A program made the translations under genes and the position numbers. Positions 1,566 to 33,662 of a stretch of DNA of 34,100 bases are shown here, in pieces. The notes under the pieces were generated by a model. It was not told the DNA's origin. It saw only the letters and a program-made list of their open reading frames with translations, and made no database searches. Source of the DNA: Acidobacteriota bacterium (GTDB lineage: Bacteria > Acidobacteriota > UBA6911 > JACQSX01); assembly GCA_036507075.1 (NCBI GenBank), contig DASXQR010000042.1:1-34100 (forward strand). The letters are read 5' to 3'. Each line of letters starts with the position of its first letter. Position 1 is the first letter of the stretch.

Positions 1566-3233
1566 CTATTGAGATCGGCTCGAGGTTGCAACCATATTCT
1601 TGTCAGGCTTCTCGGATCGCTGTAACAGAGCTTTCGCTTCCGGAAGGAGCTGAATTGCCTTTTGAACGACTTCGTCGCCTTCAATGGCCACCTTGTAACC
1701 TTCCCGGGAGCCGAAGAAAGAGTCGAACACTTCCTTCCTCACGCGTCGCTTGATGAAATCCGTATTCTTCTGAAAATCTTCATCAGAAATAATGACGGAC
1801 CTTTCCTTCAGATAATTCTTAAAATCCTCCAGAATGGCGTCCGTGATCACCAGCGAATCCATCAGCTTTTTTTGTTCCGCCTCCGAAAGGTCCGAACTCT
1901 TGGCGGGAAGCCTGAAATTGCGGGCTACCGGTATATCTCCGGCGATCAGCTTATGCGCGTAGCTGAAAAATACGTCGCGGGCGTTGAGCATCGCCTGGAT
2001 TTTGTTCGCTTCGATGCTCATTTTGAAATCCGGAGCGATGCCGCCCCCGCCGTAAACCTTTCGACCGGAGTCGGTGAGTTTTACTTCGCCGCCGGGCTTG
2101 GTATCGGGACTGTCCTTACGATTGTAGTAATACTCGTAAAATCCGCCCGAGTAATCGCGCTGAATCAAGCGGTCGCTGGGAGTGTAATAACGGCCGGTTG
2201 TCAGCGCCAGTCCCTTGCGGTCGCTCAACGTGTAAATTGTCTGTACCAGCGCTTTGCCAAACGAGGTCTCACCGATAATCAACGCGCGATCGTGGTCCTG
2301 CAGCGCTCCCGACACAATCTCAGAAGCCGATGCGCTGTAGCGATCAATCAGCACCACCATTGGATATCGATGGTTGGACCCGTTGGGCGCCTTGTACTCA
2401 TTTTCCTTGCCGTGCCGGTTGCGCGTGCTGACAATCACCTGACCCTTTTTCAGGAACTGGTTGGTGACGCGTATCGCCTGATTGAGGGCTCCGCCGGGGT
2501 TTCCGCGCAGGTCAAGGATCAGGCCCTCGAGCGTGGGCTGGTCCATTTTCTCGAGCGCCGCCTCCAGCTCATCAGATGTGGTGTCGGAAAAGCGATTAAT
2601 TTTGATGTAGCCGATGCGCGGCCGAATCAGGAAGGCATCGTGGATGGCATACATTGAAATCTCATCCCGTTCCACCGTCACGGGGATGGCGTTCTGCACG
2701 CCCGGCCTCTCAATGGTGATATCGACTTTGGTGCCTTTGGGTCCTTTCAAGTGACTGATTACATCTTCGGTTTCCCAGTCATCAATCGGTTCATTCCGTA
2801 TGTGTGTGATGATGTCGCCGGCCCGCAACTGTGCCTTGTAAGCCGGTGTGCCGGGCGCCGGTGGCTCGACGACCACGACGCGGCCCGAGCCGGGGCTGAT
2901 GGGGCGGATGGTGATGCCGAGGCCGTAGTACTTGCCCTGCTGCTCTTCCTGCAGGCGGCTGTAGTCACGCGTATCAAAAAACGAAGAATGAGGATCGAGC
3001 GTGTGGAGCATGCCGCGGATTCCGCTCTCTACCAGTTCTTCGGTGTCGACCGGGTAAACATAGTTCTCCGAGACAAGCTGCAGCACACGGGTGAAGTTCT
3101 TCATCTGCTGCTGTTCAGATGAATCTCCCAGCGGTCCACCCGCGCTCACCTTGTCGCCCAAAAAACCGCCGAATGCCGCTGCCAGAAGAATTGTCAGAAA
3201 GCCGAATAGGGAAAGCTTGTGCTTCACAGGCAC
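1566..3233 (-). CDS. ctpA: S41 C-terminal processing peptidase (PDZ + S41)
   Basis: LDPHS, DLRGNPGG, SASASEIVSGALQDHDRA and TSFGKALVQ motifs; N-terminal signal/TM segment. Confidence 0.92.
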   Translation of the reverse strand: MPVKHKLSLFGFLTILLAAAFGGFLGDKVSAGGPLGDSSEQQQMKNFTRVLQLVSENYVYPVDTEELVESGIRGMLHTLDPHSSFFDTRDYSRLQEEQQGKYYGLGITIRPISPGSGRVVVVEPPAPGTPAYKAQLRAGDIITHIRNEPIDDWETEDVISHLKGPKGTKVDITIERPGVQNAIPVTVERDEISMYAIHDAFLIRPRIGYIKINRFSDTTSDELEAALEKMDQPTLEGLILDLRGNPGGALNQAIRVTNQFLKKGQVIVSTRNRHGKENEYKAPNGSNHRYPMVVLIDRYSASASEIVSGALQDHDRALIIGETSFGKALVQTIYTLSDRKGLALTTGRYYTPSDRLIQRDYSGGFYEYYYNRKDSPDTKPGGEVKLTDSGRKVYGGGGIAPDFKMSIEANKIQAMLNARDVFFSYAHKLIAGDIPVARNFRLPAKSSDLSEAEQKKLMDSLVITDAILEDFKNYLKERSVIISDEDFQKNTDFIKRRVRKEVFDSFFGSREGYKVAIEGDEVVQKAIQLLPEAKALLQRSEKPDKNMVATSSRSQ

Positions 3234-3260
3234 CTCGTGTCCTTGGTTAAAGTCAGAGGC

Positions 3261-3269
3261 AGTATACCA
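3261..3269 (-). promoter_or_regulatory. Putative extended -10 promoter for ctpA
   Basis: Minus strand TGgTATACT, about 27 nt upstream of the GTG start; the -35 position falls inside the adjacent heptamer arm. Confidence 0.45.
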
Positions 3270-3273
3270 TTAT

Positions 3274-3478
3274 CTGTTGTCCGTTGTCCGTGGTCCGTTG
3301 TCAGTCGCCGGCAGCCGCGAATGTTGCCGGTAAGGTTGATGCCTTCGGCTACTAAATAGTTGAAACAAAATAACAAAAGGCTTCCCGCGAACTGTGATTT
3401 TTCCCACCCGGGGACTGCGGAATACCGGCAAGCGACCGCCGGCTACGGACAACAGACCACTGACTGCGGGCAACGGAC
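3274..3478. repeat. Palindromic element with CCGTTGT / ACAACGG heptamer arms (family B)
   Basis: Left ctgttgt ccgttgt ccgtggt ccgttgt cagtcgc...ttgccggta; right taccggcaa...ctacggacaacagaccactgactgcgggcaacggac; about 90-nt spacer. Confidence 0.8.
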
Positions 3479-3498
3479 GAGTGACCAGCAGTGATCAT

Positions 3499-3528
3499 TT
3501 GACTGTCGCTGCGCAACTGCTCTAAACT
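3499..3528 (+). promoter_or_regulatory. Putative sigma70 promoter for tatA-tatC-HAD
   Basis: TTGACT (3499-3504) N18 TAAACT (3523-3528). Confidence 0.5.
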
Positions 3529-3556
3529 TGAGATCCATAAGAGGTCGAAGAATACT

Positions 3557-3802
3557 ATGTTTGGTTCTCTGGGTTTTAGCGAGATTCTCATTATTTTCGT
3601 GATTGCTCTCATCGTTTTCGGTCCGCGAAAGCTGCCCGAGCTGGGGAAGTCTCTCGGCAGAGGACTTTCTGAATTCAAGAAGGCCAGCAACGACTTGAAG
3701 CGAACCTGGGAAGACGAGGTAAAGGCCGAAGATGAGAAACTCCGCCAGCTTACCAATCTTTCAGAACCGCCCCCCACGCATCCGGACGACCTGAATTCCT
3801 GA
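3557..3802 (+). CDS. tatA: Twin-arginine translocase TatA/TatE subunit
   Basis: [35 protein letters not shown] signature. Confidence 0.93.
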
Positions 3803-3809
3803 TTGATTC

Positions 3810-4604
3810 ATGATCGACCCGCAGGAGCGCGACCCGGAAGAGGAGCTTCCAGATGAGGGAGAACTCTCCGATAAGATGTCTTTTCTGGAGCATCTGGACG
3901 AGCTCCGTACGCGGTTGATCTATTCGATCATTTCCATCGCAGTGGCCTTCGTTGTCACGTTTTATTACTACGCTCCCATCTTCTACTTTATGGAAGCGCC
4001 ACTGAGGAAGGTTATGCCTCCGGGGCAGGACAAGCTTTATTTTATTGCACCGACGGAGGGCTTCGGGCTGTCGATGAAGGTTGCGTTCGTGGCGGCGATA
4101 TTTCTGGCGTCGCCCTTTCTGATCTGGCAGCTCTGGCTGTTTATCTCGCCCGGCCTCTACCGCAAAGAGAAAAAGTACGTTCTCCCTTTTCTGCTGAGCT
4201 CGACAGTGCTGTTTTTGTCCGGCGGCGCCTTTGGTTATTACATCCTGCTGCCAGGCACACTGAAGTTCCTGATCTACTTCAATCCGGGCATGACTTATTT
4301 GCCGAAGGCTTCGGAGTACTTCGGCATTGTTACCTGGATCATGCTGGGCATGGGAGGAATTTTTCAGTTGCCTGTGCTGATTGCATTCCTCTCGATTTTC
4401 GGAATCGTCACGCCGCGGTTTCTGATCCATAATTTTAAATACGCCTTCCTGCTCGCCTTTGTTCTGGGCGCCGTGATCTCTCCCACCGGTGATCCGTTCA
4501 ATCTGATGATCTATTCCGTCCCTCTCGTTGTCCTGTATCTGGTCGGCATCGGTGTTTCTTTCGTGTTTGCAAAACTGCGGAAGAAGCGCGAGCGGGGCCT
4601 CTGA
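3810..4604 (+). CDS. tatC: Twin-arginine translocase TatC
   Basis: MSFLEHLDELRTRL, WLFISPGLYRKEK, GGIFQLP, ISPTGDP; multiple TM segments. Confidence 0.95.
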   Translation: MIDPQERDPEEELPDEGELSDKMSFLEHLDELRTRLIYSIISIAVAFVVTFYYYAPIFYFMEAPLRKVMPPGQDKLYFIAPTEGFGLSMKVAFVAAIFLASPFLIWQLWLFISPGLYRKEKKYVLPFLLSSTVLFLSGGAFGYYILLPGTLKFLIYFNPGMTYLPKASEYFGIVTWIMLGMGGIFQLPVLIAFLSIFGIVTPRFLIHNFKYAFLLAFVLGAVISPTGDPFNLMIYSVPLVVLYLVGIGVSFVFAKLRKKRERGL

Positions 4605-4608
4605 TTTC

Positions 4609-5451
4609 ATGCTGGGCCGGCAGATCCGTCTGGTTGCGCTTGATCTGGACGGGACGTTTCTGGACGCCAATCACCAGGTTTCTCCGGCCAACGCGCGCGC
4701 AGTCCGGGTACTGAAGCAGCACGGCGTGCCGACGGTGCTGGTTACCGGCCGGCGCTTTCGGAACGTTGCCAGAATCGCGCAGCAGTACGGATTGGGCGAC
4801 CTGGCCATCGTGCATAACGGCGCTTTGATTCGAAGCTGCATTGACGGCGCGCTGCTCTATTTTGAGGAGATCGAGTCGGCTCTCTGTCGCGACGTAATCG
4901 AAGCGGGACGCGGATGCGGGCAATTTCCATTCCTGCATGTGAATCCAAGCGAGACGCGAATTTATTTCGAGCGCCGTGCGGAAGAAAATCGCGCCCGCGG
5001 CGAGTACATAGCGCGCAACAGTCCCGATATGGTGCCGGTCGACAACCTTTGCGACGCTCTGGATGAGTCGCGCCTGATTCAGATGATGTTTACGCATTCC
5101 ATCGCGCCTCTGCAGGCCTGCAGGCAGTGTTTGCTGGAAAACTTTTCAGAACGCGCCACGATTCTCGAAACCTGCTATCCGGAACGAGATCATGTTTTCA
5201 TCGACGTGATTCACGCGAATTGCTCGAAAGGAAAGGCGCTGCAGTGGCTGATGAATCGCGAAAGTCTGCTTCCGTCCCAGGTGATGGCTTTTGGCGACAA
5301 TCACAATGACCTGGAAATGCTGCAGGTGGCCGGCCACTCATTCCTGATGGACAACGCGGCCGGCGAGCTGAAGCGCTACGGTTTTCGCATTGCGCCGCGC
5401 AATGATGATGACGGCGTGGCAAAGATCATCGGGGAGTATTGGGGTGGATAA
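4609..5451 (+). CDS. Cof-type HAD-IIB hydrolase
   Basis: LVALDLDGT, VTGR, HNGA, SKG and AFGDNHNDLEM motifs; ATG at 4609 just after the tatC stop. Confidence 0.9.
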   Translation: MLGRQIRLVALDLDGTFLDANHQVSPANARAVRVLKQHGVPTVLVTGRRFRNVARIAQQYGLGDLAIVHNGALIRSCIDGALLYFEEIESALCRDVIEAGRGCGQFPFLHVNPSETRIYFERRAEENRARGEYIARNSPDMVPVDNLCDALDESRLIQMMFTHSIAPLQACRQCLLENFSERATILETCYPERDHVFIDVIHANCSKGKALQWLMNRESLLPSQVMAFGDNHNDLEMLQVAGHSFLMDNAAGELKRYGFRIAPRNDDDGVAKIIGEYWGG

Positions 5452-5490
5452 TCTGAATGCGGAATGCTGAATGCGAAATGCCGAATGCGG
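5452..5490. repeat. Orphan GAATGCG heptamer arm (family A)
   Basis: tctgaatgcggaatgctgaatgcgaaatgccgaatgcgg directly after the HAD stop codon; no complementary arm nearby. Confidence 0.8.
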
Positions 5491-5497
5491 AGGCGGA

Positions 5498-5597
5498 CCG
5501 TTGTCAGTGGTCCGTTGTCAGTTGTCAGTGGTTGGTCGTGGCACCGACATCTTTGAATTCGTGAAATTCGTGAAATTCGTGAAATTCGTGATCCAAC
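5498..5597. repeat. Left composite arm (5x CCGTTGT-type heptamer + 4x GAAATTCGT 9-mer) overlapping the dusB 3' end
   Basis: ccgttgt cagtggt ccgttgt cagttgt cagtggt...gcacc gacatc tttgaattc gtgaaattc gtgaaattc gtgaaattc gtgatccaac; inverted partner at 6563-6653. Confidence 0.88.
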
Positions 5598-6550
5598 AGG
5601 AACTCGGCAAGGACCCTGCGCGCGCCTTCTATATCCTGGGCGTAAAAGACGGCGCTGCGAAATTCGGCGGAATCGGGAAGACCTTTGGTGAAGCGGCCTA
5701 CCAGGTTCTTGATCTTTCCGAGGGCCGCTTCCGGTGTGGAATCCGAGATGATGCTTTCGAATAGCTCGAATAAGATCCGGTAGGTGAGCCGGCGATCGGG
5801 AATTTCGAAGCTGCCGGTTCGCAGCAACTGGAGGCTCTGCCGGAAGATCCAGGGATTGGCGGTCGCCCCGCGTCCGATCATCACCGCGTCGCAACCGGTC
5901 TCTTGCAGCATTCGAAGCGCATCCTGGGCTGTTTTGACATCGCCGCTGCCGATCACCGGAATATCCATCTCCTTTTTCAGCAGCGCAATCAGCGACCAGT
6001 CCGCGCCTCCAGAGAATTCGGCCACACGGGTGCGCGGATGCAACGTCACCGCGGCAACGCCGACCTGGCGCGCCATGCGCGCAATTTCAAGGAAGTTCCT
6101 GGAATTATCATCCCAGCCCGCCCGGATTTTGATCGTCAGCGGAATCGTCAAGGCCTCCTTGACAGCCTGAACGATGTCGCGCAGCAGTTCGGGCTCGCGC
6201 ATCAGTCCGCATCCGCCGCCGCCTTTGACAATCTTTTTCGCCGGGCAACCCACGTTGATATCGATCATGTCCACGCCGGCGGCTTCTGCCATCCGCGCCG
6301 CCCGAGCCATGGTTTCCGGGTCCGCGCCGAAAAGCTGGATACCGACCGGGCGTTCTTCTTCCGAATAGCGCATCATTTTGAGCGTCTTCTGATTCTCGCG
6401 CACGATGCCTTCGACGCTGATCAGTTGTGAATAGACAAACCCGCAGCCTCCCAGCCGCTTGATGGTGCGGCGAAAGTGAGTGTCGGTCACTGCCGCCATG
6501 GGAGCGAGCACGAAGGGTGATCTGATTTCAATGTTGCCGATGTGGAACAC
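5525..6550 (-). CDS. dusB: tRNA-dihydrouridine synthase B
   Basis: LAPMA, DINVGCPAKK, TIKIRAGW, TLHPRT, GSGDV, VMIGRG motifs. Start is probably the GTG at 6550 (MFHIGNIEI), alternative 6571. The tail HEFHEFHEFHEF is repeat-encoded. Confidence 0.92.
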   Translation of the reverse strand: MFHIGNIEIRSPFVLAPMAAVTDTHFRRTIKRLGGCGFVYSQLISVEGIVRENQKTLKMMRYSEEERPVGIQLFGADPETMARAARMAEAAGVDMIDINVGCPAKKIVKGGGGCGLMREPELLRDIVQAVKEALTIPLTIKIRAGWDDNSRNFLEIARMARQVGVAAVTLHPRTRVAEFSGGADWSLIALLKKEMDIPVIGSGDVKTAQDALRMLQETGCDAVMIGRGATANPWIFRQSLQLLRTGSFEIPDRRLTYRILFELFESIISDSTPEAALGKIKNLVGRFTKGLPDSAEFRSAVFYAQDIEGARRVLAEFLLDHEFHEFHEFHEFKDVGATTNH

Positions 6551-6653
6551 GAATTTCAACAGGTTGGTCACGAATTACACGAATTACACGAATTTCACGA
6601 ATTCAAAATTCGTGGTGCAACAACTGACAACTGACAACGGACAACGGACAACG
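6547..6653. repeat. Right composite arm (CACGAATT(T/A) 9-mers + ACAAC(T/G)G heptamers) between the blaI stop and the dusB start
   Basis: gttggtcac gaattacac gaattacac gaatttcac gaattcaaa attcgt ggtgc aacaactg acaactg acaacgg acaacgg acaacg. Confidence 0.88.
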
Positions 6654-6659
6654 CGATAG

Positions 6660-7118
6660 TCACAGCAGGGTAACGTCCTCTTCTTCGTCCGCCACTGCCG
6701 CCCTTCCCTCCCCTGCCGCCAGGGAAGACTCCGCCGTGCGCACAGCCGAAACAGTCGGAGGACTCGAAATCTCGCGCTCCGTTTTCTTGAGCCCGGAGAC
6801 CGCCTCCGAAGAAGCTGCTCGACCGCTGATAAAACGCATCAGTTCTTCGCGCGACCCGTGGAAAAAATCGTCCACAAAATTTTCCAGCGTGTCCGACAGC
6901 GCCTGCGCGCGCGTCACACGCGGCGTGTAAAGATAGGCGCGACCTTTCTTGGCATGTGCCAGCAGGCCCTTCTTGTACATGTGATCCATTTCCGTCATCA
7001 CCGTCGTATAGGCCAGTCCCTTACGGCGAGCCAGTTGACTGTGGACATCCTTAACAAGAGCACTTCCGCGCTCCCATATGATCTCCATGATCTCAAACTC
7101 GACGGGTGTGAGCTTCAT
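6660..7118 (-). CDS. BlaI/MecI/CopY family transcriptional regulator
   Basis: LTPVEFEIMEIIW, LAYTTVMT, KKGLL, GRAYLYTP, FVDDFFHGS; low-complexity C-terminal extension. Confidence 0.9.
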   Translation of the reverse strand: MKLTPVEFEIMEIIWERGSALVKDVHSQLARRKGLAYTTVMTEMDHMYKKGLLAHAKKGRAYLYTPRVTRAQALSDTLENFVDDFFHGSREELMRFISGRAASSEAVSGLKKTEREISSPPTVSAVRTAESSLAAGEGRAAVADEEEDVTLL

Positions 7119-7144
7119 GTTTTGAAGTCAGCGAGCCAGGCGCA

Positions 7145-7180
7145 TTGGTGGTAAAGAAAGAACGGACCACCAAGACACCA
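7145..7180. repeat. Degenerate ACCAAG(A/G)C octamer hairpin (family F)
   Basis: ttggtggt...accaccaagacacca; same unit as at 22388-22443 and 28952-28994. Confidence 0.5.
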
Positions 7181-7250
7181 GGCGAGGTGTTGCAACTTGG
7201 ACATTGAGCGCAGGCTCAGTCGAGCAGGATCTCTGAGGAGGCCCGGCGCC

Positions 7251-8246
7251 TCACTCTATCGGATACTGGTCCTTGTACTTGGGCGAAACGTAAACGTAGC
7301 TCTGCTGCCGCAGTTGCTCGGCAAAACGAGCCAGCTCAGGCTGCATCTTACCGTAATAGATTTCCCGCTGGATATCATTGCGGACCTGATCCAGCGCCAC
7401 GGGTGTGGGATTGATCTTCTTGTTTAACCGGAGTATCACCAACCCGTAGTCGGTTTGCACGATGCCGGTATGATCATCCGGCTTCAGCGCGAATACCGCC
7501 TTTTCCAGAGCAGGGGCCATCATGCCGGCTTTAAACGCGCCTACACTGCCGCCTTTTCCGGCCGTGGCGCCTTCGGAATATTTCCTTGCAACTTCGGCAA
7601 AATCCTTGCCGGCGCTGATCTCGGCCAGAGCCTGTTCGGCCTTTTTGCGCGCATCGGACGGTTCCTTGCCTTCAAAGAGCACCACCACTTCGCTTACATC
7701 CACTTCGGCCGGCTTGGTGAACTTGTCGAGGTTCTTCTGATAGAACTCATTTACTTCGGCGGTTGTCACCAGGATCTTCGATTGGACGTAACGGCCGATC
7801 AGTCGGTCATATAACAAACGCTTCCGGAGCGAATCCTTATACTCGGCCATGGTGAGGCCCTGCTGCTGCAAAGCTTGTTCGAAGGTTTTCATGTCGGGAA
7901 TTCCTGATTCCTTGCGGATCCCCTCGATCGTTCCCGCCACCTCGACATCAATATTCTGTGTCAGCCCGGCTTCTTCGGCCTTTTGCAGCATCAGTTTGTT
8001 TTCAATCAGGTTTTTCAACGCCTGCTTTGAAACCCGGGCAAATTCCTTGTCAACGATCGCCTTGTCCTTGTACTGCGCCATCAACTGCTCCTGGATCGAT
8101 TCCAGTTCGTTGTTCAAATCGCTCAGAGTAACAATTTCGGTGTTCACTTTCGCCACTATCTCTTCAATCACCCTGGTCTGGGCGTTGAGCGGAGGACGGA
8201 TTGTGCCGATCACAATCAAGATCCAAAAAGTCTTTGTACGAAACAT
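7251..8246 (-). CDS. SurA-like periplasmic chaperone / parvulin PPIase
   Basis: IVAKVNTEIVTLSDL SurA N-domain; FAEVARKYSEG, GGSVG, VQTDYG rotamase motifs; GGGAG RBS before ATG 8246. Confidence 0.85.
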   Translation of the reverse strand: MFRTKTFWILIVIGTIRPPLNAQTRVIEEIVAKVNTEIVTLSDLNNELESIQEQLMAQYKDKAIVDKEFARVSKQALKNLIENKLMLQKAEEAGLTQNIDVEVAGTIEGIRKESGIPDMKTFEQALQQQGLTMAEYKDSLRKRLLYDRLIGRYVQSKILVTTAEVNEFYQKNLDKFTKPAEVDVSEVVVLFEGKEPSDARKKAEQALAEISAGKDFAEVARKYSEGATAGKGGSVGAFKAGMMAPALEKAVFALKPDDHTGIVQTDYGLVILRLNKKINPTPVALDQVRNDIQREIYYGKMQPELARFAEQLRQQSYVYVSPKYKDQYPIE

Positions 8247-8266
8247 CTGTAAAACTCCCGAGTAAG

Positions 8267-8398
8267 AAATTTTCACCACAGAGGCTTAGCGCGGCGAAGC
8301 CGCAACCAAAAGTCAAGGAGAGACGGCCTGAGGGCCGTCTCTCTGCGGTGTACTGGCAAGCTGAGACGGCCCGCAGGCCGTCTCTCCGGTGAAAATTT
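8267..8398. repeat. Nested element: outer AAATTTTCACC inverted ends, GCGGCGAAGCCGCAACCAAA cap and a REP-like doublet
   Basis: Outer IR 8267-8277 / 8388-8398; two GAGACGGCC-N-GGCCGTCTC palindromes; 8290-8388 matches the reverse complement of 34002-34100 at 96/99 nt. Confidence 0.85.
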
Positions 8399-9312
8399 TA
8401 AACACCCATTTTTAGATTTTCCGGGTAAACCCTGACATTGAGCCTTTTCTTCAGGTCCCCAATGCGGGTCTGGATCGCGGAACTTTCCTTGTCCGCCAGA
8501 AGCTTCTCAAAAATCTGATCCTTCACCTCGAAAAACTTCTGCCGGTGGCTGCGAATCCGCTCATCCACCAGAAAAAGATGATATCCCAAATCGCTTTTCA
8601 CGGGCGCACTAATTTGCCCAGCTCGCAGCCTGAAAACGGCGCTCTCAAAGGCTTCCGGCAGGTCTCCCTGCTTGAAAGTGCCCACCTCGCCATTGCGCGA
8701 GGCGCTCGGCGCCCGGGAAAACTTTCGCGCCGCCTGGATGAAGGCTTCCACAGGCTGGCGCTGCAACTGGCGATGGAGCCTCTGGGCCAGCACTTCATCC
8801 GCCACCAGGATTTCACGTACGTGGACGGTCTCGGGTTGCAGAAACTGAAGCTGGTTGAGCTCAAAGTAGGTCTCAGCCTCATCCAGGCGGACCTGAACTG
8901 CAGCAGAAATGTTGGATTTGATCCATTTCTGAACACGGAGGTCGTCGCGCACGGCACGGATCAGCTCCGGATTAGCCAGATCGGTCGAAGTTGTCATTCC
9001 CAGCTTCAACAGGTTCTCGCGCACGTCCTCGTCATCCACGTAAGTTCTGTCCCGCTCGGCCACATGGAGAAGGATCTCGTGGTCCACGAAAAGATTAAAC
9101 AGCTCAGATTCGTCCTGGTGTTCGTCCAGCCTGAGCTTGGCGGAACGAAACCGCTGCCAATCGGTTGTGGTAATTACGCGGTCCTCGATCTTAACCACCG
9201 GAAGTGCGCCTTTCGCTGGCGAGCCCGCGTGACGCGATTGACACGCAGGCGCCGCCAGGAGCATCAGGCAGAGCAGGCGGACTCCTGGCTGCATCCGTGG
9301 AAATGATCTCAC
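8398..9312 (-). CDS. PpiC/PrsA-type peptidyl-prolyl isomerase, probable lipoprotein
   Basis: VHVREILV, ARKFS, NGEVG, SAPVKSDLGYHLF; signal LLCLMLLAAPAC; AGGAG RBS before GTG 9312 (alternative ATG 9294). The ORF-track extension to 9603 is repeat sequence. Confidence 0.82.
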   Translation of the reverse strand: MRSFPRMQPGVRLLCLMLLAAPACQSRHAGSPAKGALPVVKIEDRVITTTDWQRFRSAKLRLDEHQDESELFNLFVDHEILLHVAERDRTYVDDEDVRENLLKLGMTTSTDLANPELIRAVRDDLRVQKWIKSNISAAVQVRLDEAETYFELNQLQFLQPETVHVREILVADEVLAQRLHRQLQRQPVEAFIQAARKFSRAPSASRNGEVGTFKQGDLPEAFESAVFRLRAGQISAPVKSDLGYHLFLVDERIRSHRQKFFEVKDQIFEKLLADKESSAIQTRIGDLKKRLNVRVYPENLKMGV

Positions 9313-18122: not shown

Positions 18123-20036
18123 TTACGCCGGTGACGGCTTCTCCTTGGGCTTGATAAGCTGGGGCAGCGTCGATTTCTTGCCTTCGATCTTCTCGCGCGG
18201 TTCTTCTCTGCCCGGCTGTGCGGCGTCGCGTCTGGCTGCGATGCTCTCGCCTTTGAGAACCATTCGAATCTCTTCCGAATCGAGCGATTCAAACTCGATC
18301 AGGGCCTCCGCCAGACGGACCAGTTCATCGCGGTGCTGGCCGAGTAGTTCCTTGGCCAGCTGGTAACCGGTCATCACAATGCGTTTGACCTCTTCATCGA
18401 TCTTGATTGCCGTTTCTTCGCTGTAATCCTGATGCTGCGCGATCTCGCGTCCCAGGAAGATCTGTTCTTCCTTCTTACCGAAGGTGAGAGGGCCCATGGC
18501 CTCGCTCATGCCCCATTCGCATACCATTCTCCGGGCGCGCTCGGTGACGCGCTCCAGATCATTGGCGGCTCCGGTGGTGCAGCTCCCCAGGAAGATTTCT
18601 TCGGCAGCGCGTCCTGCCAGCAGGATGGCAACTGAAGCCTCCATATATTCCTTCGAGTAGTTGTACTTTTCGTCCTCGGGAAGCTGCATGGTCACGCCCA
18701 GCGCGCGGCCGCGGGGGATGATGGTCACTTTGTGGAGCGGATCCGCGTGGGGGAGCAGATGTGCCACCAGAGCGTGCCCTGCTTCGTGGTACGCGGTGAT
18801 GCGCTTCTCCTTTTCCGTGAGGATCAGAGATTTTCTCTCCTTACCCATGAGGACCTTGTCTTTGGCTTCCTCAAAATCAGTCATGTTGACCGACTTCTTG
18901 TTGTAACGCGCCGCGTTCAGCGCAGCCTCATTGACCAGGTTGGCGAGCTGGGCGCCGGAAAAACCGGGAGTACCGCGCGCCAGCACTTCGAGCTGCACGT
19001 CTTCGGCCAGCGGAATCTTCCGAGTGTGGACTTTCAGGATGCCTTCGCGTCCCTTGATGTCGGGCAGATTCACAACCACCTGGCGATCGAAGCGCCCCGG
19101 CCGCAGCAGCGCGGGATCCAGGACATCGGGACGGTTTGTGGCGGCAATCAAAATCACTCCGTCATTGGATTCGAAACCATCCATCTCCACCAGCAACTGG
19201 TTCAAAGTCTGTTCGCGCTCGTCGTGACCGCCGCCCAGACCGGCGCCGCGGTGGCGGCCCACTGCGTCAATCTCATCGATAAAGATGATGCAGGGAGCAT
19301 TCTTTTTTCCCTGTTCGAACAGGTCGCGGACGCGGGAGGCGCCCACGCCGACAAACATCTCCACGAAATCAGAACCGGAGATGGAGAAGAACGGAACGTT
19401 GGCTTCACCGGCGATGGCGCGCGCCAGCAGCGTCTTGCCGGTGCCCGGGGGTCCCATCAGCAAAACACCTTTGGGAATGCGCCCGCCCAGCTTTTGAAAC
19501 TTCTGGGGCTCCTTGAGAAATTCGACGATTTCCTGCAGCTCTTCCTTGGCTTCTTCAATTCCGGCGACGTCCTTGAAGGTGACGCGCTTCTGCTGGTTGG
19601 ACGAAAGTTTGGCGCGGCTCTTGCCGAATGAAAGGGCTTTATTGCCGCCGCTCTGCATCTGCCGCATCAGAAAAATCCAGAAGCCGATGAAGAGAATGAT
19701 CGGGAACCAGGAACTGAGCGCGTAAACCCAGATTCCCTGATCGGTGTCGTTGACTGTCACCTTGGCCCCGTTGGCCTCCAGGATACCGGCTACGTCAGCC
19801 GGGTTGTTGGGCAGCAGCGTTTTGAATTTCTTGCCTGTGTCCTTGAACTCTCCCTCTACCTTGTTCCCGGTAATGCTGACTTCTTTGATCTGTTTGCCCC
19901 GCGCGGCGGCCATAAAATCGGTGTAGGCCAGAGACTGAGCATTGCCGCTACGCACACTGTTGAGGAAATTCCACAGCACCACGACGGCTACGATGATGAC
20001 GATCCAAAGAAAAATGTTTTTTGCGGTTGCGTTCAA
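18123..20036 (-). CDS. ftsH: ATP-dependent zinc metalloprotease FtsH
   Basis: Two TM segments, [39 protein letters not shown] before the TTG start. Confidence 0.98.
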
Positions 20037-28229: not shown

Positions 28230-28919
28230 GTGCTGGCGCTGCGGAAAATCGAACTGGAGTCTCTTCTTAAAGAAAAGCATCTTTTTCCAAATTTCTCATC
28301 ATTTTCCTCCGACTTTCAGGAGAAGCTCGGCACGTCACTTCCGGCCTTAAATGATCTCCTCTCTGGCGGCTTACCCCGGGGGCAAATTTCCGAAATTACC
28401 GGACCGATCTCTTCCGGCAAAAGCAGTTTGCTGTATTCCGTTCTGGCGCAGGCCACCCGCCAGAGGGAAGTCGTCGCCTGTGTGGATTGCAACCAATTCG
28501 ATCCCTGGTCGGCGTATCGAAGCGGATTGGATTTAAAAAAATTACTCTGGGTGAGATGCTCGCAAAGTTATCAACTTTTGAAAGCCGCCGACATTCTCTG
28601 TAATGCCGGAAATTTTGGAGTGATTGCATTGGACATGATCAACCTTAAGCGTGCCGGGCTATACGGGCCGGACGTCTGGTTTCGATTACAGCGTATCGTG
28701 GAAGGGACTAAAACCGTACTGCTGGTATTGTCTGTTCATCCCCAGGCCCGAACTGCCTCGCGCCTCACGCTGAGCTTGAAAAAGAAAGATCTGTACTGGG
28801 AGGGCAGGCAATCAACTTGGAAATTGCTGCAGGGATTTTCCATGGAAGTCAACTGCGCCCGCGGAAAGCGGGACATGACCAAGGTGCTCGTAAGCCGGCA
28901 ATCCCGTAAAACTGCATAA
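28230..28919 (+). CDS. imuA: ImuA-like RecA-family protein
   Basis: LLSGGLPRGQISEITGPISSGKS, VDCNQFDP, LKKLLWVR; first gene of the imuB-dnaE2 cassette. Confidence 0.85.
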   Translation: MLALRKIELESLLKEKHLFPNFSSFSSDFQEKLGTSLPALNDLLSGGLPRGQISEITGPISSGKSSLLYSVLAQATRQREVVACVDCNQFDPWSAYRSGLDLKKLLWVRCSQSYQLLKAADILCNAGNFGVIALDMINLKRAGLYGPDVWFRLQRIVEGTKTVLLVLSVHPQARTASRLTLSLKKKDLYWEGRQSTWKLLQGFSMEVNCARGKRDMTKVLVSRQSRKTA

Positions 28920-28994
28920 ACCGCGAAGGCGCGAAAACGCGAATAAAAATTAACCACCAAAGACACCAAGCTTTGTTCTTGTGTCTTGGTGGTT
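28920..28994. repeat. Decayed CGCGAA arm plus family F hairpin between imuA and imuB
   Basis: accgcgaaggcgcgaaaacgcgaa followed by aaccaccaaagacaccaag / cttgtgtcttggtggtt. Confidence 0.7.
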
Positions 28995-29010
28995 TTTGAT
29001 TTTTTTAAAC

Positions 29011-30429
29011 ATGCAACGTTACGGAGCCGTTTATTTTCACGCGCAAGTCGGCTCTTCTGGCCCATTGGAATCGCAGGAACTGGCGCTTCAGATTGCCGGC
29101 GATTTCTCGCCCTGGGTCGAGCAGGCCGGCATGAACCTGGTGGTGATGGATTTAAGCGGCTTGTCCCGGCAATGGCCCGATGAAAAAGTCCTGGCCCGCA
29201 CGATTGTTCAAAAATTTCAGGACAAAAATCTGCTCGCTCAAATTGCCATTTCTTCCAATCGCGCCACAGCCCGTCTGGTTGCTTCCGGGACTGCGGGCAC
29301 CTCCATCATTCTTCCGGGCCAGGAAAAAGAATTTCTCGCTCCCCTGCCGTTGGCGCTGCTCGAAGCTCCGCTGGAAATAGGGGAAGTTTTTGATCGCTGG
29401 GGATTAAGAACGCTGGGTGATCTGGCAAATCTCCCCGAAAAAGCTCTGGCGCAACGCCTGGATGAAAAAGGCATGGAGCTCTACCGGCAGGCTTGCGGAG
29501 AGGATGCTACCCCTCTGCTGCCCCACACTCCGATTGAAACATTCGAGGTTTTTTATGCCTTCGACTGGCCGCTGGAAAACAGCGAATCTCTGGCGTTCAC
29601 TTTAAATCATCTACTCGATCGATTGTGCCGCCGGCTCGACTCCCGCTCTCTGGTGGCGGAAGCGGTCAGCCTTTCGATGAATCTGGCCGATGGAAGCGAA
29701 AACGCGCGCCATATCCGTTTTGGGTTCCCCTTAAACGATGCCGCTACCATCCTCTCCCTGGTGCGGCTGGATCTGGAAGCCCGGCCCCCGCAAGCCGCCA
29801 TTGAGTCGCTTTTGCTGCGGCTTTATCCTGCGCCTCCCCGGCCGGTGCAATTCTCGCTGGTTGAGCCGCCCATGATTCCTCCCGAAAAGCTGGCCCGTAC
29901 TCTGGCGCGGTTGTGCGCCCTGGTGGGAGACCAAAACGTGGGCTCTCCGGCTTTGCTGGATACTTATCGCCCCGATGCGTTTGAGATGAGACCTTTCGAT
30001 TTAAATCCACCACAGAGACTTCACAGGCGGGGCGGTCGCCAAACAAACTTACCATTGCGGAATGCGGAATGCGGAATGCGGAATAAAGAAAACAGATTCA
30101 CTCTCAATGGAAACAACTCTTCTCTCATTCCGCATTCCGCATTCCCCATTCCGCAATCGGAAGTCGTGATGGCGTTGCGTATTTTCCGACCTTCCCTGCA
30201 GGCGCGGGTAAAGATCGAACGAGTGCGGCCTGTTTCCCTGGAATCCCCCGTTGCCAGCGGAAACATCATCGAGTGCGGCGGTCCCTGGCGAACTTCGGGG
30301 GAGTGGTGGAAGAAAGATCAGCGCTGGGCATGGGATGAATGGGATGTGCTCTTAAACAACGGACAGTTGTACCGACTTTATCGCGATCTGAGCACGGAGC
30401 AGTGGTTTGTTTTCGGAGCATATGACTAG
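29011..30429 (+). CDS. imuB: ImuB, inactive Y-family polymerase homolog, with in-frame palindrome insert
   Basis: FSPWVE, VMDLSG, FLAPLPL, WGLRTLGDLA, GPWRTSGEWW, DEWDV; canonical catalytic motifs not seen. Confidence 0.88.
   Translation: MQRYGAVYFHAQVGSSGPLESQELALQIAGDFSPWVEQAGMNLVVMDLSGLSRQWPDEKVLARTIVQKFQDKNLLAQIAISSNRATARLVASGTAGTSIILPGQEKEFLAPLPLALLEAPLEIGEVFDRWGLRTLGDLANLPEKALAQRLDEKGMELYRQACGEDATPLLPHTPIETFEVFYAFDWPLENSESLAFTLNHLLDRLCRRLDSRSLVAEAVSLSMNLADGSENARHIRFGFPLNDAATILSLVRLDLEARPPQAAIESLLLRLYPAPPRPVQFSLVEPPMIPPEKLARTLARLCALVGDQNVGSPALLDTYRPDAFEMRPFDLNPPQRLHRRGGRQTNLPLRNAECGMRNKENRFTLNGNNSSLIPHSAFPIPQSEVVMALRIFRPSLQARVKIERVRPVSLESPVASGNIIECGGPWRTSGEWWKKDQRWAWDEWDVLLNNGQLYRLYRDLSTEQWFVFGAYD
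30054..30157. repeat. Family A palindrome inside the imuB coding sequence
   Basis: 31-nt arms 30054-30084 / 30127-30157 with one mismatch; translated as LRNAECGMRN...IPHSAFPIPQ. Confidence 0.92.
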
Positions 30430-30432
30430 GCT

Positions 30433-30534
30433 ACGGGTTTCCGAGTTTACGAGTTGACGGGTTACGAGTTGACGAATTGAAAAATTCAAAATTGACTTGT
30501 CAACCCGTAACTCGTCAACCCGCAACCCGCAAAC
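30433..30534. repeat. Family E palindrome filling the imuB-dnaE2 gap
   Basis: acgggtttccgagtttacgagttgacgggttacgagttgacg / ttgtcaacccgtaactcgtcaacccgcaacccgcaaac. Confidence 0.88.
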
Positions 30535-30539
30535 TGAAA

Positions 30540-33500
30540 ATGTACATCGAACTTCATGCCTGCAGCGCCTTCAGTTTTCTCGAAGGGAGCGCTTTGCCGG
30601 AACAACTTGTGAGTCGGGCGGCCCAGCTTGGATATCCCTCCCTGGCGCTGCTGGATCGGGATGGTGTCTACGGCGCTCCCCGTTTTTACAAGGAAGCGCA
30701 AAAAGTGGGAGTTCGTCCTCTGGTGGGAAGCGAAATTACCCTGATGCTTTCCAGGCCCGATACCGGCGGTCTTTGCAGGCTGCCGGTGCTGGTGGAAAAT
30801 CAAACCGGATATCGCAATCTCTGCCGTCTGGTCACGCGCGTGAAGCTGCGCGCCCCCAAAGGAGAAGGCCAGACAAGCATTGCAGAGCTGCAAGAGTTTT
30901 ACCAGGGGCTGGTTTGTCTCACCGGAGGCGACAACGGCCCTCTGCGCGCGTTGCTGCGCGAGCATGGAGTTTCCGAAGCACAGAAATTTCTGGAGCAGTT
31001 GGTTTCCATTTTCGGCAGCCGGAATGTTTACGTGGAGTTGCAGCGGCATTTCATTCGCCGCCAGGAGGAAGAAAATCAGACTCTTATTTCGCTGGCGGGC
31101 CGCTTGCGGCTGCCGCTGCTGGCAACCAACGGCGTGCTCTACGACCAGGCTTGCAGCCGCGCGCTGCTGGATGTGCTTACATGCATCCGCCATAAGACCA
31201 ACCTGGATGAGGCCGGGACCCTGCTGCAGCAAAACGCGGAACGGTATCTGAAAGCTCCCGGAAAAATGGAGAAGATTTTCGCCGATTGCCCGGCCGCCAT
31301 CGCACACACCGTGGAACTGGCGGCGCGCTTGAATTTCACGCTCCAGGATCTGGGATATAAATTTCCCGCCTATCCCGTGCCTGCCGGCGAAAGCATGTCG
31401 GCCTACCTGCGCTGCCTCACGCATATGGGCGGATTGAAACATTACGGAGTCAAGGACACGCGCGCCTGGAAGCAAATCGGACGGGAGCTGGACTTGATTG
31501 AAAAGCTCGATCTGGCCGGCTATTTCCTGATTGTGTGGGATATTGTCCGCTTCTGCCGCGAGGCAAACATCATGGTGCAGGGAAGGGGATCGGCGGCAAA
31601 CAGCGCGGTCTGTTACAGCCTGGGCATTACGGCGGTGGATCCCATTCGAATGGACCTGCTGTTTGAGCGGTTCCTTTCCGAAGAGCGCGGCGAGTGGCCG
31701 GATATCGATCTGGATTTTCCCAGCGGGGACCGCCGCGAGCGCGCCATTCAATACGTTTACGAGCGTTACGGAAAACATGGCGCCGCCATGACAGCCAACG
31801 TTATTACTTACCGGGACAAGAGCGCTTCCAGGGAAGTGGGCAAGGCGCTCGGGTTCGGCCTGGAGCAGATCGACCGTCTTTCGAAATTAATCAGCACCTG
31901 GGGTTATCACGGGGAAGCTCCCAATCTGGCGGAACGACTTTCTCAGGCGGGTTTTCATTTGGATGATCGCCGCGTGGCGCACTTTGCGCGCTTGTGGGAA
32001 TCCATTCAAGACCTGCCGCGCCACCTGGGGCAGCATTCCGGCGGGATGGTGATCTGTCAGGGCGCGTTGGATTCGGTGGTCCCTCTGGAGAATGCCGCCA
32101 TGCCGGGGCGCGTGGTAGTGCAGTGGGACAAGGAAGACTGCGCCGATATGGGAATTGTGAAGGTGGATCTGCTGGGGCTGGGAATGATGTCCGTGCTTCA
32201 GGACTCCATTGGTCTGATTTCCGACGCCTATGGAGACAAGATTGATCTGGCCCACCTTCCGGCGGATGATCCCAGGGTGTATCGAATGCTGCAGCGGGCC
32301 GACACCATCGGATTGTTCCAGGTGGAAAGCCGGGCGCAAATGGCAACGCTTCCCCGCCTGAAGCCCGAATGTTTTTACGATCTGGTTGTGGAAATCGCCA
32401 TCATCCGTCCCGGTCCGATCGTGGGCAATATGGTGCATCCTTACTTAAATCGTCGCGCCGGGCGCGAGCCGGTGCAGTACCCGCATCCCTGTCTGGAACC
32501 CATTTTGAAGCGCACCCTGGGAGTGCCCCTGTTCCAGGAGCAGCTCCTGCGCATCGCGATGGTGGCGGCGAATTTTTCCGGCGGGGAGGCCGAAGAGCTG
32601 AGGCGCGCTTTCGGCTTCAAGCGCTCCGAGGCGCGCATGAAAACGATCGAAGTGAAACTGCGGCGCGGAATGGAGGAGAATGGAATCACAGGCGACACCG
32701 CCGAGCAGATCATCCATTCCATTACCGCTTTTGCGCTGTACGGTTTCCCTGAATCACATTCCGCCAGTTTCGCGCTGCTGGCATATGCCAGCGCTTACCT
32801 GAAGGTTTATTATCCGGCGGCTTTTTATACCGGGCTTTTGAATAATCAGCCGATGGGCTTTTATCATCCCGCAACTCTGATCAAGGACGCGCAGCGGCGC
32901 GGCGTGCGCGTCCGTCCGGTGGATGTGCTGTGTTCCGATTATGACTGTGCCATTGAGGAAGACAAATCCATGCGGCTGGGACTGCGCATGGTCGCGGGCA
33001 TGAAAGCGGAAACAGGCAGACGCATCGCGCAGGAACGCAAGGCAAAGCCGTTTACTTCCCTGGATGATCTGAAAAAGCGCACGCCGGTGAATCGGAGCGA
33101 GTTGGCCACGCTGGCAGAAATCGGCGCTCTCAACAGCCTGGGCCTGCGGCGGCGCGGCGCCCTGTGGCAGATCGAAAAGACAGCGCGCCCGGCGGGAGAG
33201 CTTTTTGAAAACCTGCAGGAATCTGATTCCAATCCTCTGCCCGACATGACACTGGAAGAACGGATTCGTTCCGATTACCGCGGCACCGGCGTTACCGTCG
33301 GCCCCCATCCGATTTCCCTGTACCGCAGGGCGCTGGAACAGAAGGGAGTTGTTCCTGCCCGCCTGCTGCATACGTTGAAGAACGGAAAATGGGTGCGAAT
33401 TGCGGGTTCCGTGATTGTGCGCCAGCGCCCCGGAACTGCTAAAGGATTTTTCTTTGTAACGCTGGAAGATGAAACCGGCGTGTCCAATGCCATCTTCCGA

Positions 33501-33662
33501 CCGCAGATGTTCGAAGAGCAGAGATCGCTGCTGGTTTCTTCACCTTGTCTTCTGATAGAAGGCGTGCTGCAGAATGTGGATGGCGTCATTTCCGTGAAAG
33601 CGGAAAGAGCAGAGCCTCTGGATGTCACCAAACTCTCGGTGCCGTCACATGATTTTCACTGA
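30540..33662 (+). CDS. dnaE2: Error-prone DNA polymerase DnaE2 (ImuC)
   Basis: MYIELHACSAFSFLEG PHP start, GRGSAANS, PDIDLDF, PRHLGQHSGG, YGFPESHS, RQRPGTAKG, C-terminal SHDFH; the ORF-track extension to 30477 is repeat sequence. Confidence 0.96.
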   Translation: MYIELHACSAFSFLEGSALPEQLVSRAAQLGYPSLALLDRDGVYGAPRFYKEAQKVGVRPLVGSEITLMLSRPDTGGLCRLPVLVENQTGYRNLCRLVTRVKLRAPKGEGQTSIAELQEFYQGLVCLTGGDNGPLRALLREHGVSEAQKFLEQLVSIFGSRNVYVELQRHFIRRQEEENQTLISLAGRLRLPLLATNGVLYDQACSRALLDVLTCIRHKTNLDEAGTLLQQNAERYLKAPGKMEKIFADCPAAIAHTVELAARLNFTLQDLGYKFPAYPVPAGESMSAYLRCLTHMGGLKHYGVKDTRAWKQIGRELDLIEKLDLAGYFLIVWDIVRFCREANIMVQGRGSAANSAVCYSLGITAVDPIRMDLLFERFLSEERGEWPDIDLDFPSGDRRERAIQYVYERYGKHGAAMTANVITYRDKSASREVGKALGFGLEQIDRLSKLISTWGYHGEAPNLAERLSQAGFHLDDRRVAHFARLWESIQDLPRHLGQHSGGMVICQGALDSVVPLENAAMPGRVVVQWDKEDCADMGIVKVDLLGLGMMSVLQDSIGLISDAYGDKIDLAHLPADDPRVYRMLQRADTIGLFQVESRAQMATLPRLKPECFYDLVVEIAIIRPGPIVGNMVHPYLNRRAGREPVQYPHPCLEPILKRTLGVPLFQEQLLRIAMVAANFSGGEAEELRRAFGFKRSEARMKTIEVKLRRGMEENGITGDTAEQIIHSITAFALYGFPESHSASFALLAYASAYLKVYYPAAFYTGLLNNQPMGFYHPATLIKDAQRRGVRVRPVDVLCSDYDCAIEEDKSMRLGLRMVAGMKAETGRRIAQERKAKPFTSLDDLKKRTPVNRSELATLAEIGALNSLGLRRRGALWQIEKTARPAGELFENLQESDSNPLPDMTLEERIRSDYRGTGVTVGPHPISLYRRALEQKGVVPARLLHTLKNGKWVRIAGSVIVRQRPGTAKGFFFVTLEDETGVSNAIFRPQMFEEQRSLLVSSPCLLIEGVLQNVDGVISVKAERAEPLDVTKLSVPSHDFH

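Follow-up and report, generated by a model that had tools for sequence, protein, structure and literature searches.

Within the window, i.e. the whole 34,100-nt stretch of DNA that was analysed, dusB lies between a BlaI/CopY-family repressor gene, its kept upstream neighbour, and a HAD hydrolase gene at the end of a tatA-tatC-HAD run. The earlier note's placement of dusB where two operons converge is borne out, and tatC is convergent downstream in 10/10 loci (the window's own locus counted). dusB is single-copy in the 6.1-Mb assembly, G000. Its likely start is the GTG at 6550, which lines up with the ATG in relatives; another in-frame GTG, at 6571, lies inside the 5' arm of an inverted repeat enclosing the gene. 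The features are as follows.

4609..5451, + strand: Cof-type HAD hydrolase, last of the tatA-tatC-HAD run, convergent on dusB (TIGR00099, over cut-off)
5453..5491, + strand: unpaired left-form array of a third heptamer family (GAATGCG type), directly past the HAD stop (TRF)
5500..5540, + strand: 3' arm, outer part, five GTTGTC-family heptamers and a 7-nt insertion, holding the dusB stop (5525-5527) (sequence, TRF, alignment)
5525..6550, - strand: dusB, tRNA dihydrouridine synthase, likely start GTG at 6550 (TIGR00737, 333.9 bits, over cut-off)
5541..5560, + strand: 3' arm linker (GCACC, 6 nt, TTTGAATTC), within the dusB reading frame (array comparison)
5556..5597, + strand: 3' arm, inner part, four nonamers up to CCAAC (TRF, array comparison, alignments)
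6557..6563, no strand: 7-nt word at the inner end of the 5' arm, recurring direct at the 3' arm inner end (5594-5600) (sequence, alignment)
6563..6603, - strand: 5' arm, inner part, four nonamers up to CCAAC (sequence, TRF)
6596..6618, - strand: 5' arm linker (sequence, alignment)
6618..6653, - strand: 5' arm, outer part, five GTTGTC-family heptamers, from 7 nt past the blaI stop (sequence, TRF)
6660..7118, - strand: BlaI/CopY-family repressor, kept upstream neighbour of dusB (PF03965; synteny)

The arms, 5499-5597 and 6563-6653, are 84.8% identical over 99 nt (96.9 bits, BLAST) and are mutually the best match in the assembly, the runner-up scoring 68-70 bits. The mirrored composite claimed at dusB is present, with the same order of units in both arms (heptamers, GCACC, 6-7 nt, TTTGAATTC, nonamers, CCAAC) on either side of a 966-nt spacer. 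From TTTGAATTC to CCAAC the arms differ by 2 substitutions and 1 indel, as had been stated. The whole alignment holds 10 substitutions and a 1-nt indel; the 3' arm also carries 7 inserted nt, which went unmentioned in the earlier note. The longest perfect run is 21 nt. The extents also agree with that description. The 3' arm covers the last 23-24 dusB codons and the stop, and its nonamers are translated as a His-Glu-Phe repeat, with the outer-type end toward the gene. The 5' arm begins 7 nt past the blaI stop, into which the sequence beyond 6653 leads directly, and ends 13 nt ahead of the likely dusB start. Neither array has a local partner within 450 nt, as claimed, save one reversed nonamer unit in the 5' arm, which forms an 8-bp mini-hairpin in the linker (6596-6614); a different 7-mer stands at that place in the 3' arm. 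The GAATGCG-type array past the HAD stop lies outside the inverted repeat, is itself without a local partner and has no counterpart beyond the 5' arm. Two short contigs of sequencing run X1, at depths of 9.3 and 9.2, cover the 5' linker (window 6586-6649), and one of them carries two other letters, one at 6616. This is a hint of a strain allele or an unassembled second copy.

Arrays of 7-9-nt units are dispersed throughout the genome of this soil acidobacterium as intergenic short-tandem-repeat hairpin families. There are 2722 merged tandem arrays (TRF), with 1022 heptamer, 568 octamer and 370 nonamer rows at a score of at least 40, and most of these well over two thousand arrays form hairpin elements in gene gaps. 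The arms are built from two of these families, with 172 (heptamer) and 84 (nonamer) strict arrays. No second genome in a sample of 251 from the phylum is as rich in the arm heptamer: three tandem units of it give 256 matches here and 48 in the next-best genome, with any match at all in 27/251 genomes (an unpublished genome, G015, among the 27). Among locally paired arrays polarity is fixed in 95/95 heptamer and 35/35 nonamer cases, and unpaired arrays present their outer side to the nearer gene end (within 60 nt) in 53/57, 56/58 and 24/33 cases. The array pieces at dusB are oriented as is usual for their families toward the nearest gene end (53 vs 4 and 24 vs 9 among unpaired arrays). The dusB heptamers have the enclosing polarity and the nonamers the reverse, outer ends toward the gene, so dusB does not sit in the loop of one nested element. 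Each dusB gap holds the same chimeric unit, a heptamer left arm joined to a lopsided nonamer element.

Unlike its parts, the join is uncommon. The GCACC linker follows 2/172 heptamer arrays and TTTGAATTC starts 2/84 nonamer arrays, and in each case both are the dusB arms. A looser pattern, heptamers followed by nonamer right arms, occurs at three places in the assembly, and at the third of these (C130), which lacks the linker, paired heptamers adjoin a complete nonamer hairpin. The composite pattern is found in 0/136 other genomes of the class (G015 among those with none). Among 2469 arrays compared, the best match of a partnerless array lies 450-6000 nt away, inverted in 10 cases and direct in 8, by a crude partner test that scores some degenerate pairs as unpaired (e.g. 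window 3276/3443). dusB is the sole reciprocal-best, partnerless, inverted pair at gene scale among them, which makes it an extreme case. Since the linkers are exclusive to the arms and the arms are mutual best matches, one arm is a copy of the other.

Had a mobile composite inserted twice, independently and in opposite orientations, once on each side of dusB, the layout would be the same, and abundant repeats lend this some plausibility. Both families are common, and chance inverted pairs of multi-copy composites do occur in the genome, e.g. in C152 and C88, with better copies elsewhere; the X1 contigs also hint at a second version of the 5' linker. Many unlinked copies had been named in advance as the mark of such a pair, yet only the two dusB-flanking copies were found in the assembly, not the multiple dispersed copies of a MITE or REPIN. 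Marker completeness of the assembly is 95.7%, which should leave few copies unseen, although repeats may fail to assemble. No shared flank is visible around the 100-nt composites, and nothing ties the 12 Y1_Tnp matches in the assembly to either dusB repeat family. A chance pair is very unlikely.

The repeats recur in neighbouring gaps well beyond dusB. The earlier note had called for a search for other genes bracketed by matched arms. Matching flanks are indeed present across the genome (112/2374 testable genes; 29 better inverted, 44 better direct and 39 ambiguous), and the only reciprocal, partnerless, inverted array pair is that of dusB. Among 1183 array-bearing gaps, with a strong match defined as a score of at least 80, strong matches link 24/434 (5.5%) of gaps one gene apart, 19/393 (4.8%) at two genes, 14/379 (3.7%) at three and 10/333 (3.0%) at four. 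At six and ten genes the fractions are 4/305 (1.3%) and 4/237 (1.7%), and random gap pairs give 58/4000 (1.45%). Within-contig shuffles predict 12.0 strong matches one gene apart against 24 observed (0/2000 shuffles), with 4.2 expected and 10 observed for inverted neighbours (23/2000 shuffles) and 5.05 expected and 12 observed for direct ones (2/2000 shuffles). The neighbour excess is about twofold, is alike in both orientations and fades over about five genes, a trend that rests on one genome with 4863 genes called by a simple finder.

Among 22 oriented pairs one gene apart, three are mutual best matches, those around dusB, an S4-domain pseudouridine synthase gene and dxr; 18 other oriented pairs have a better match elsewhere for at least one side. 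The pseudouridine synthase gene is bracketed by direct copies of a 227-nt hairpin element (G000:C17:91880-92105 and 92957-93180), the unique loop of which is copied too. The dxr bracket consists of direct copies of 136 nt with 2 mismatches, and its element is present as three near-identical copies in consecutive gaps (G000:C69:17252-17398, 18311-18458 and 19719-19854), the first inverted and the rest direct. The inverted copy precedes the adjacent cdsA-family gene, so that cdsA is bracketed inverted.

Other flanks of this general kind can be seen in the assembly. A three-family composite stands in direct orientation across the ribosomal protein L5 gene and a neighbour (G000:C17:6838-6990 and 8024-8150). 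Long inverted elements of the same family flank a gene of 307 aa with no Pfam match (C152:27534-27813 and 28775-29072), and such elements also flank hemE, a COX2-domain gene and a GH57 gene (C228, C7 and C187). The flanks in C152, C228, C7 and C187 have equal or better copies elsewhere for at least one side.

The locus was also compared in relatives, as the earlier note had proposed. Of 185 loci examined, 177 have a DusB match passing filters and 159 have both flanks; these loci are interrelated, not independent, and the named relatives are mostly Acidobacteriota MAGs. The place and strand of dusB are conserved, with blaI upstream on the same strand in 61/62 loci where blaI was detected (the window's own locus counted). 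At this locus the inverted flank score reaches 106; the 158 other dusB loci have a 95th percentile of 23 and peak at 58, and arms of this kind are present at none of those 158. The maximum of 58 belongs to a locus (L164) with a palindromic repeat on both sides of dusB. No genome of the same genus turned up. In two relatives of the same family but another genus, G001 and G003, blaI precedes dusB on the same strand and there are no arms around dusB; the full order in G001 is tatA-tatC-HAD facing dusB-blaI-surA-surA-mfd. A response-regulator and HD-domain block stands 3' of dusB in both genomes and is absent from G000. DusB proteins in the metagenome and genome contig scans are 42-52% identical among the matches listed (80 kept per scan), and a protein search gave four at 71-77% identity.

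Several loci differ in content. In L130 the blaI-surA operon faces dusB rather than preceding it. In G002 (L191, C40), a member of the family, blaI is followed, by eye, directly by the convergent HAD gene, with no DusB match found in the genome, and dusB appears to have been lost from the slot. In G003 the blaI-dusB gap is filled, up to just before the dusB start, by a nested hairpin drawn from several other repeat families (L002:2460-2910), and a frameshifted four-helix-bundle remnant lies directly past dusB between inverted heptamer arrays (L026:5700-6070, C206). This remnant has no Pfam match but is 91% and 78% identical, in two frames, to a PF05635 gene of G000. With another hairpin and a broken gene cassette on the two sides of dusB in G003, the dusB gaps would seem to turn over quickly.

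The conserved setting bears on whether dusB is cargo captured by a repeat-bounded element, which the earlier note had offered as a possibility. Other heptamer, octamer and nonamer families of G000 do enclose four-helix-bundle and GxxExxY genes, several such cassettes lying, by eye, between inverted arrays. Among these cassettes, also by eye, none was seen in which the dusB repeat families enclose the gene in normal polarity. The nonamer arms face dusB with their outer ends, the reverse of 35/35 locally paired nonamer arrays. dusB is moreover single-copy, in its ancestral position and orientation, with blaI on the same strand in 60/61 other loci, and capture as cargo is thus extremely improbable. 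Assignment to a mobile cassette or composite transposon was likewise considered and rejected, dusB being neither out of context nor present in extra copy and having kept its neighbours.

The same setting bears on a second suggestion of the earlier note, an invertible segment whose arms would recombine and so move dusB from the blaI transcript to the tat-HAD transcript or back. The position between convergent operons would suit it, and a simulated crossover in the 21-nt perfect core leaves the reading frame intact with a stop at a similar place. The arms are, however, 15% diverged and differ by a 7-nt indel, unlike the near-perfect inverted sites of a fim/hin-type switch; of the serine and tyrosine recombinase matches in the genome (2 for PF00239, 15 for PF00589), none lies on the window's contig. 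The assembled orientation of dusB is the ancestral one, and the sole relative with dusB reversed relative to blaI (L130) has no inverted arms. The pieces listed from 4/8 runs, all of them assembled contigs, break inside the arms (e.g. 5564-6598 in X2 and in X1, which may be the source sample) and speak for neither orientation. With nothing positive in its favour, inversion is highly improbable.

An RNA-level role is less improbable. A duplex of the two arms might be kept by selection and gate dusB, either through an initiation block on untranslated transcripts or through RNase III excision of the cistron. In a 1201-nt fold of the native sequence alone, the duplex is predicted at -121.5 kcal/mol, with 69/91 bases of the 5' arm pairing with the 3' arm at a probability above 0.9. 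The in-frame GTG at 6571 lies inside the predicted helix, promoter and terminator scans are at chance level with no terminator-like site between or at the arms, and rnc is present in the genome. The likelier start at 6550 is nevertheless unpaired to the 3' arm in the prediction, and about 70 nt of the 3' arm are coding, where ribosomes would be expected to unwind the helix. G-U accounts for 1/10 mismatches in the dusB arms, against 28% in 584 local hairpins, where G-U and A-C mismatches are themselves not skewed (1012 vs 936, p 0.09); ten mismatches are a thin basis for dismissing selection on pairing. Arms are absent from the 158 other dusB loci. Direct brackets, which are incapable of pairing, are as frequent as inverted ones, and copies 2-4 genes off close no single cistron, so short-range copying accounts for the genome-wide pattern better than selected RNA loops do. 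Of the mRNA duplex that had been proposed, the predicted pairing stands, while selection for it is disfavoured by the G-U share and the absence from relatives, and a selected duplex is unlikely.

The bracket around dusB is real and non-random, and it is most likely a by-product of local element copying rather than a purpose-built switch. The abundance of the repeats, together with their copying to neighbouring gaps in both orientations, which the earlier note overlooked, explains the bracket without a function. Of that note's wider interpretation, what holds up is that the arms share an origin and that an mRNA duplex is physically possible; the cargo and the invertible switch find no support. 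The bracket is probably a local inverted copy of a repeat chimera, without a selected role. A heptamer left arm and a lopsided nonamer element would have come to abut at one end of dusB, giving a chimera of about 100 nt, and a reversed copy of it would then have been placed at the opposite end of the gene, some 1 kb off. The sequence shows that the arms share an origin; the copying event and its enzyme we infer. The likeliest route would be a template switch during replication, or gene conversion, in which repeat units already standing at both ends served as primers and the CCAAC microhomology as the closing point; alternatively, the element would have hopped locally. dusB itself stayed put and the arms would have diverged later. 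The same process would have flanked other housekeeping genes with direct or inverted copies. Pairing of the arms, predicted for untranslated blaI-dusB mRNA, would be a side effect.

As to the direction of copying, the 3' end is leaned toward as the donor. Two relatives have counterparts of the Phe-Leu-Leu codons that underlie CCAAC, and these codons contain a 7-mer seen again at the 5' arm's inner end. A cluster of differences from the 3' linker makes the small local hairpin in the 5' linker perfect. Both hints are post hoc and weak. The repeated 7-nt word (6557-6563 and 5594-5600), spotted post hoc as well, could be the footprint of a template switch. A native origin of the residues past the His-Glu-Phe repeat looked possible in comparison with G001 and G003, and the tails of four further relatives are highly variable.

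A combined reading, in which repeats spread by short-range copying and sometimes close a gene, the dusB stem is live on untranslated mRNA and cut by RNase III, and the gene flips between the convergent operons, is quite unlikely. If it were true, selfish repeats would be a running source of new whole-cistron switches.

Comparable repeats have been described elsewhere. GGGAATC in Xanthomonas and GGGGA(C/T)T in Nostoc are abundant intergenic tandem heptamers with many close inverted pairs (70 and 75 cases) and a strand bias near stops and starts, their function being unproven according to the accessible part of that account (PMC4692102). The repeats of the present genome are likewise abundant, intergenic, 7-nt tandem units in inverted pairs; at dusB, however, two families are fused and the partner lies 966 nt off across a whole gene, and the accessible part of the account describes neither gene-spanning pairs nor copying to neighbouring gaps (PMC4692102). 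TAACTGA repeats of Beggiatoaceae, Cyanobacteria and Bacteroidetes, to which a heptamer here is nearly identical (CAACTGA), lie toward start codons with strain-specific gain and loss. As far as that source is accessible, they differ from the dusB arms in forming direct arrays with a possible translation role and only one inverted case (PMC4679880). In template switching, one arm of an inverted repeat templates the other, leaving shared multi-base features and a spacer that is kept or inverted, in the accessible parts of two reports (PMC8604942, PMC8794818). The resulting homogenisation of inverted arms is documented there mainly for short spacers (PMC8604942), longer switch distances with a 1-kb spacer being allowed for only in discussion (PMC8794818); the 966-nt spacer of dusB is thus an extrapolation from the short-spacer cases as far as these are accessible (PMC8604942).

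The dusB locus also differs from two further classes of element. In rRNA intervening sequences, RNase III excises a stem. ORF-bearing 23S rRNA intervening sequences and PF05635 cassettes resemble the dusB locus in that a gene is closed by a long stem, and related PF05635-type cassettes with tandem-repeat arms are present in G000, with the broken remnant past dusB in G003. At dusB the enclosed gene is instead a resident housekeeping gene, the inner arms are reversed and the stem overlaps the coding region; an IVS-like four-helix-bundle cassette was rejected as a candidate, the enclosed ORF being DusB and not of PF05635 type. MITEs and REP/REPIN elements are small non-coding hairpin repeats in gene gaps. 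Like them, the present repeats are gap hairpins in a genome with Y1 transposases, but there are only two composite copies and no visible target duplication. In openly accessible main texts, no account was found of a resident gene closed by such arms or of distance-dependent copying between gaps, and Rfam gave 0 matches in window 3000-9000.

It has long been asked how heptamer and nonamer families spread in bacteria. Both the dusB bracket and the neighbour excess that fades with distance point to short-range copying in both orientations, which gives a testable handle on the question. In a repeat-rich genome, a gene enclosed by a long inverted repeat should not on that ground alone be called a switch. 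As a single-locus feature the bracket is modest; were the stem shown to control dusB, it would be much weightier.

Repeats are also evident elsewhere in the window. A 99-nt inverted match of 97% links 8290-8388, a REP-like doublet in the surA gap, with a doublet at the contig end (34002-34100). An imuA-imuB-dnaE2 mutagenesis cassette occupies 28230-33662; tandem arrays stand where imuB meets dnaE2, and the imuB-like ORF contains a heptamer hairpin (30056-30155).
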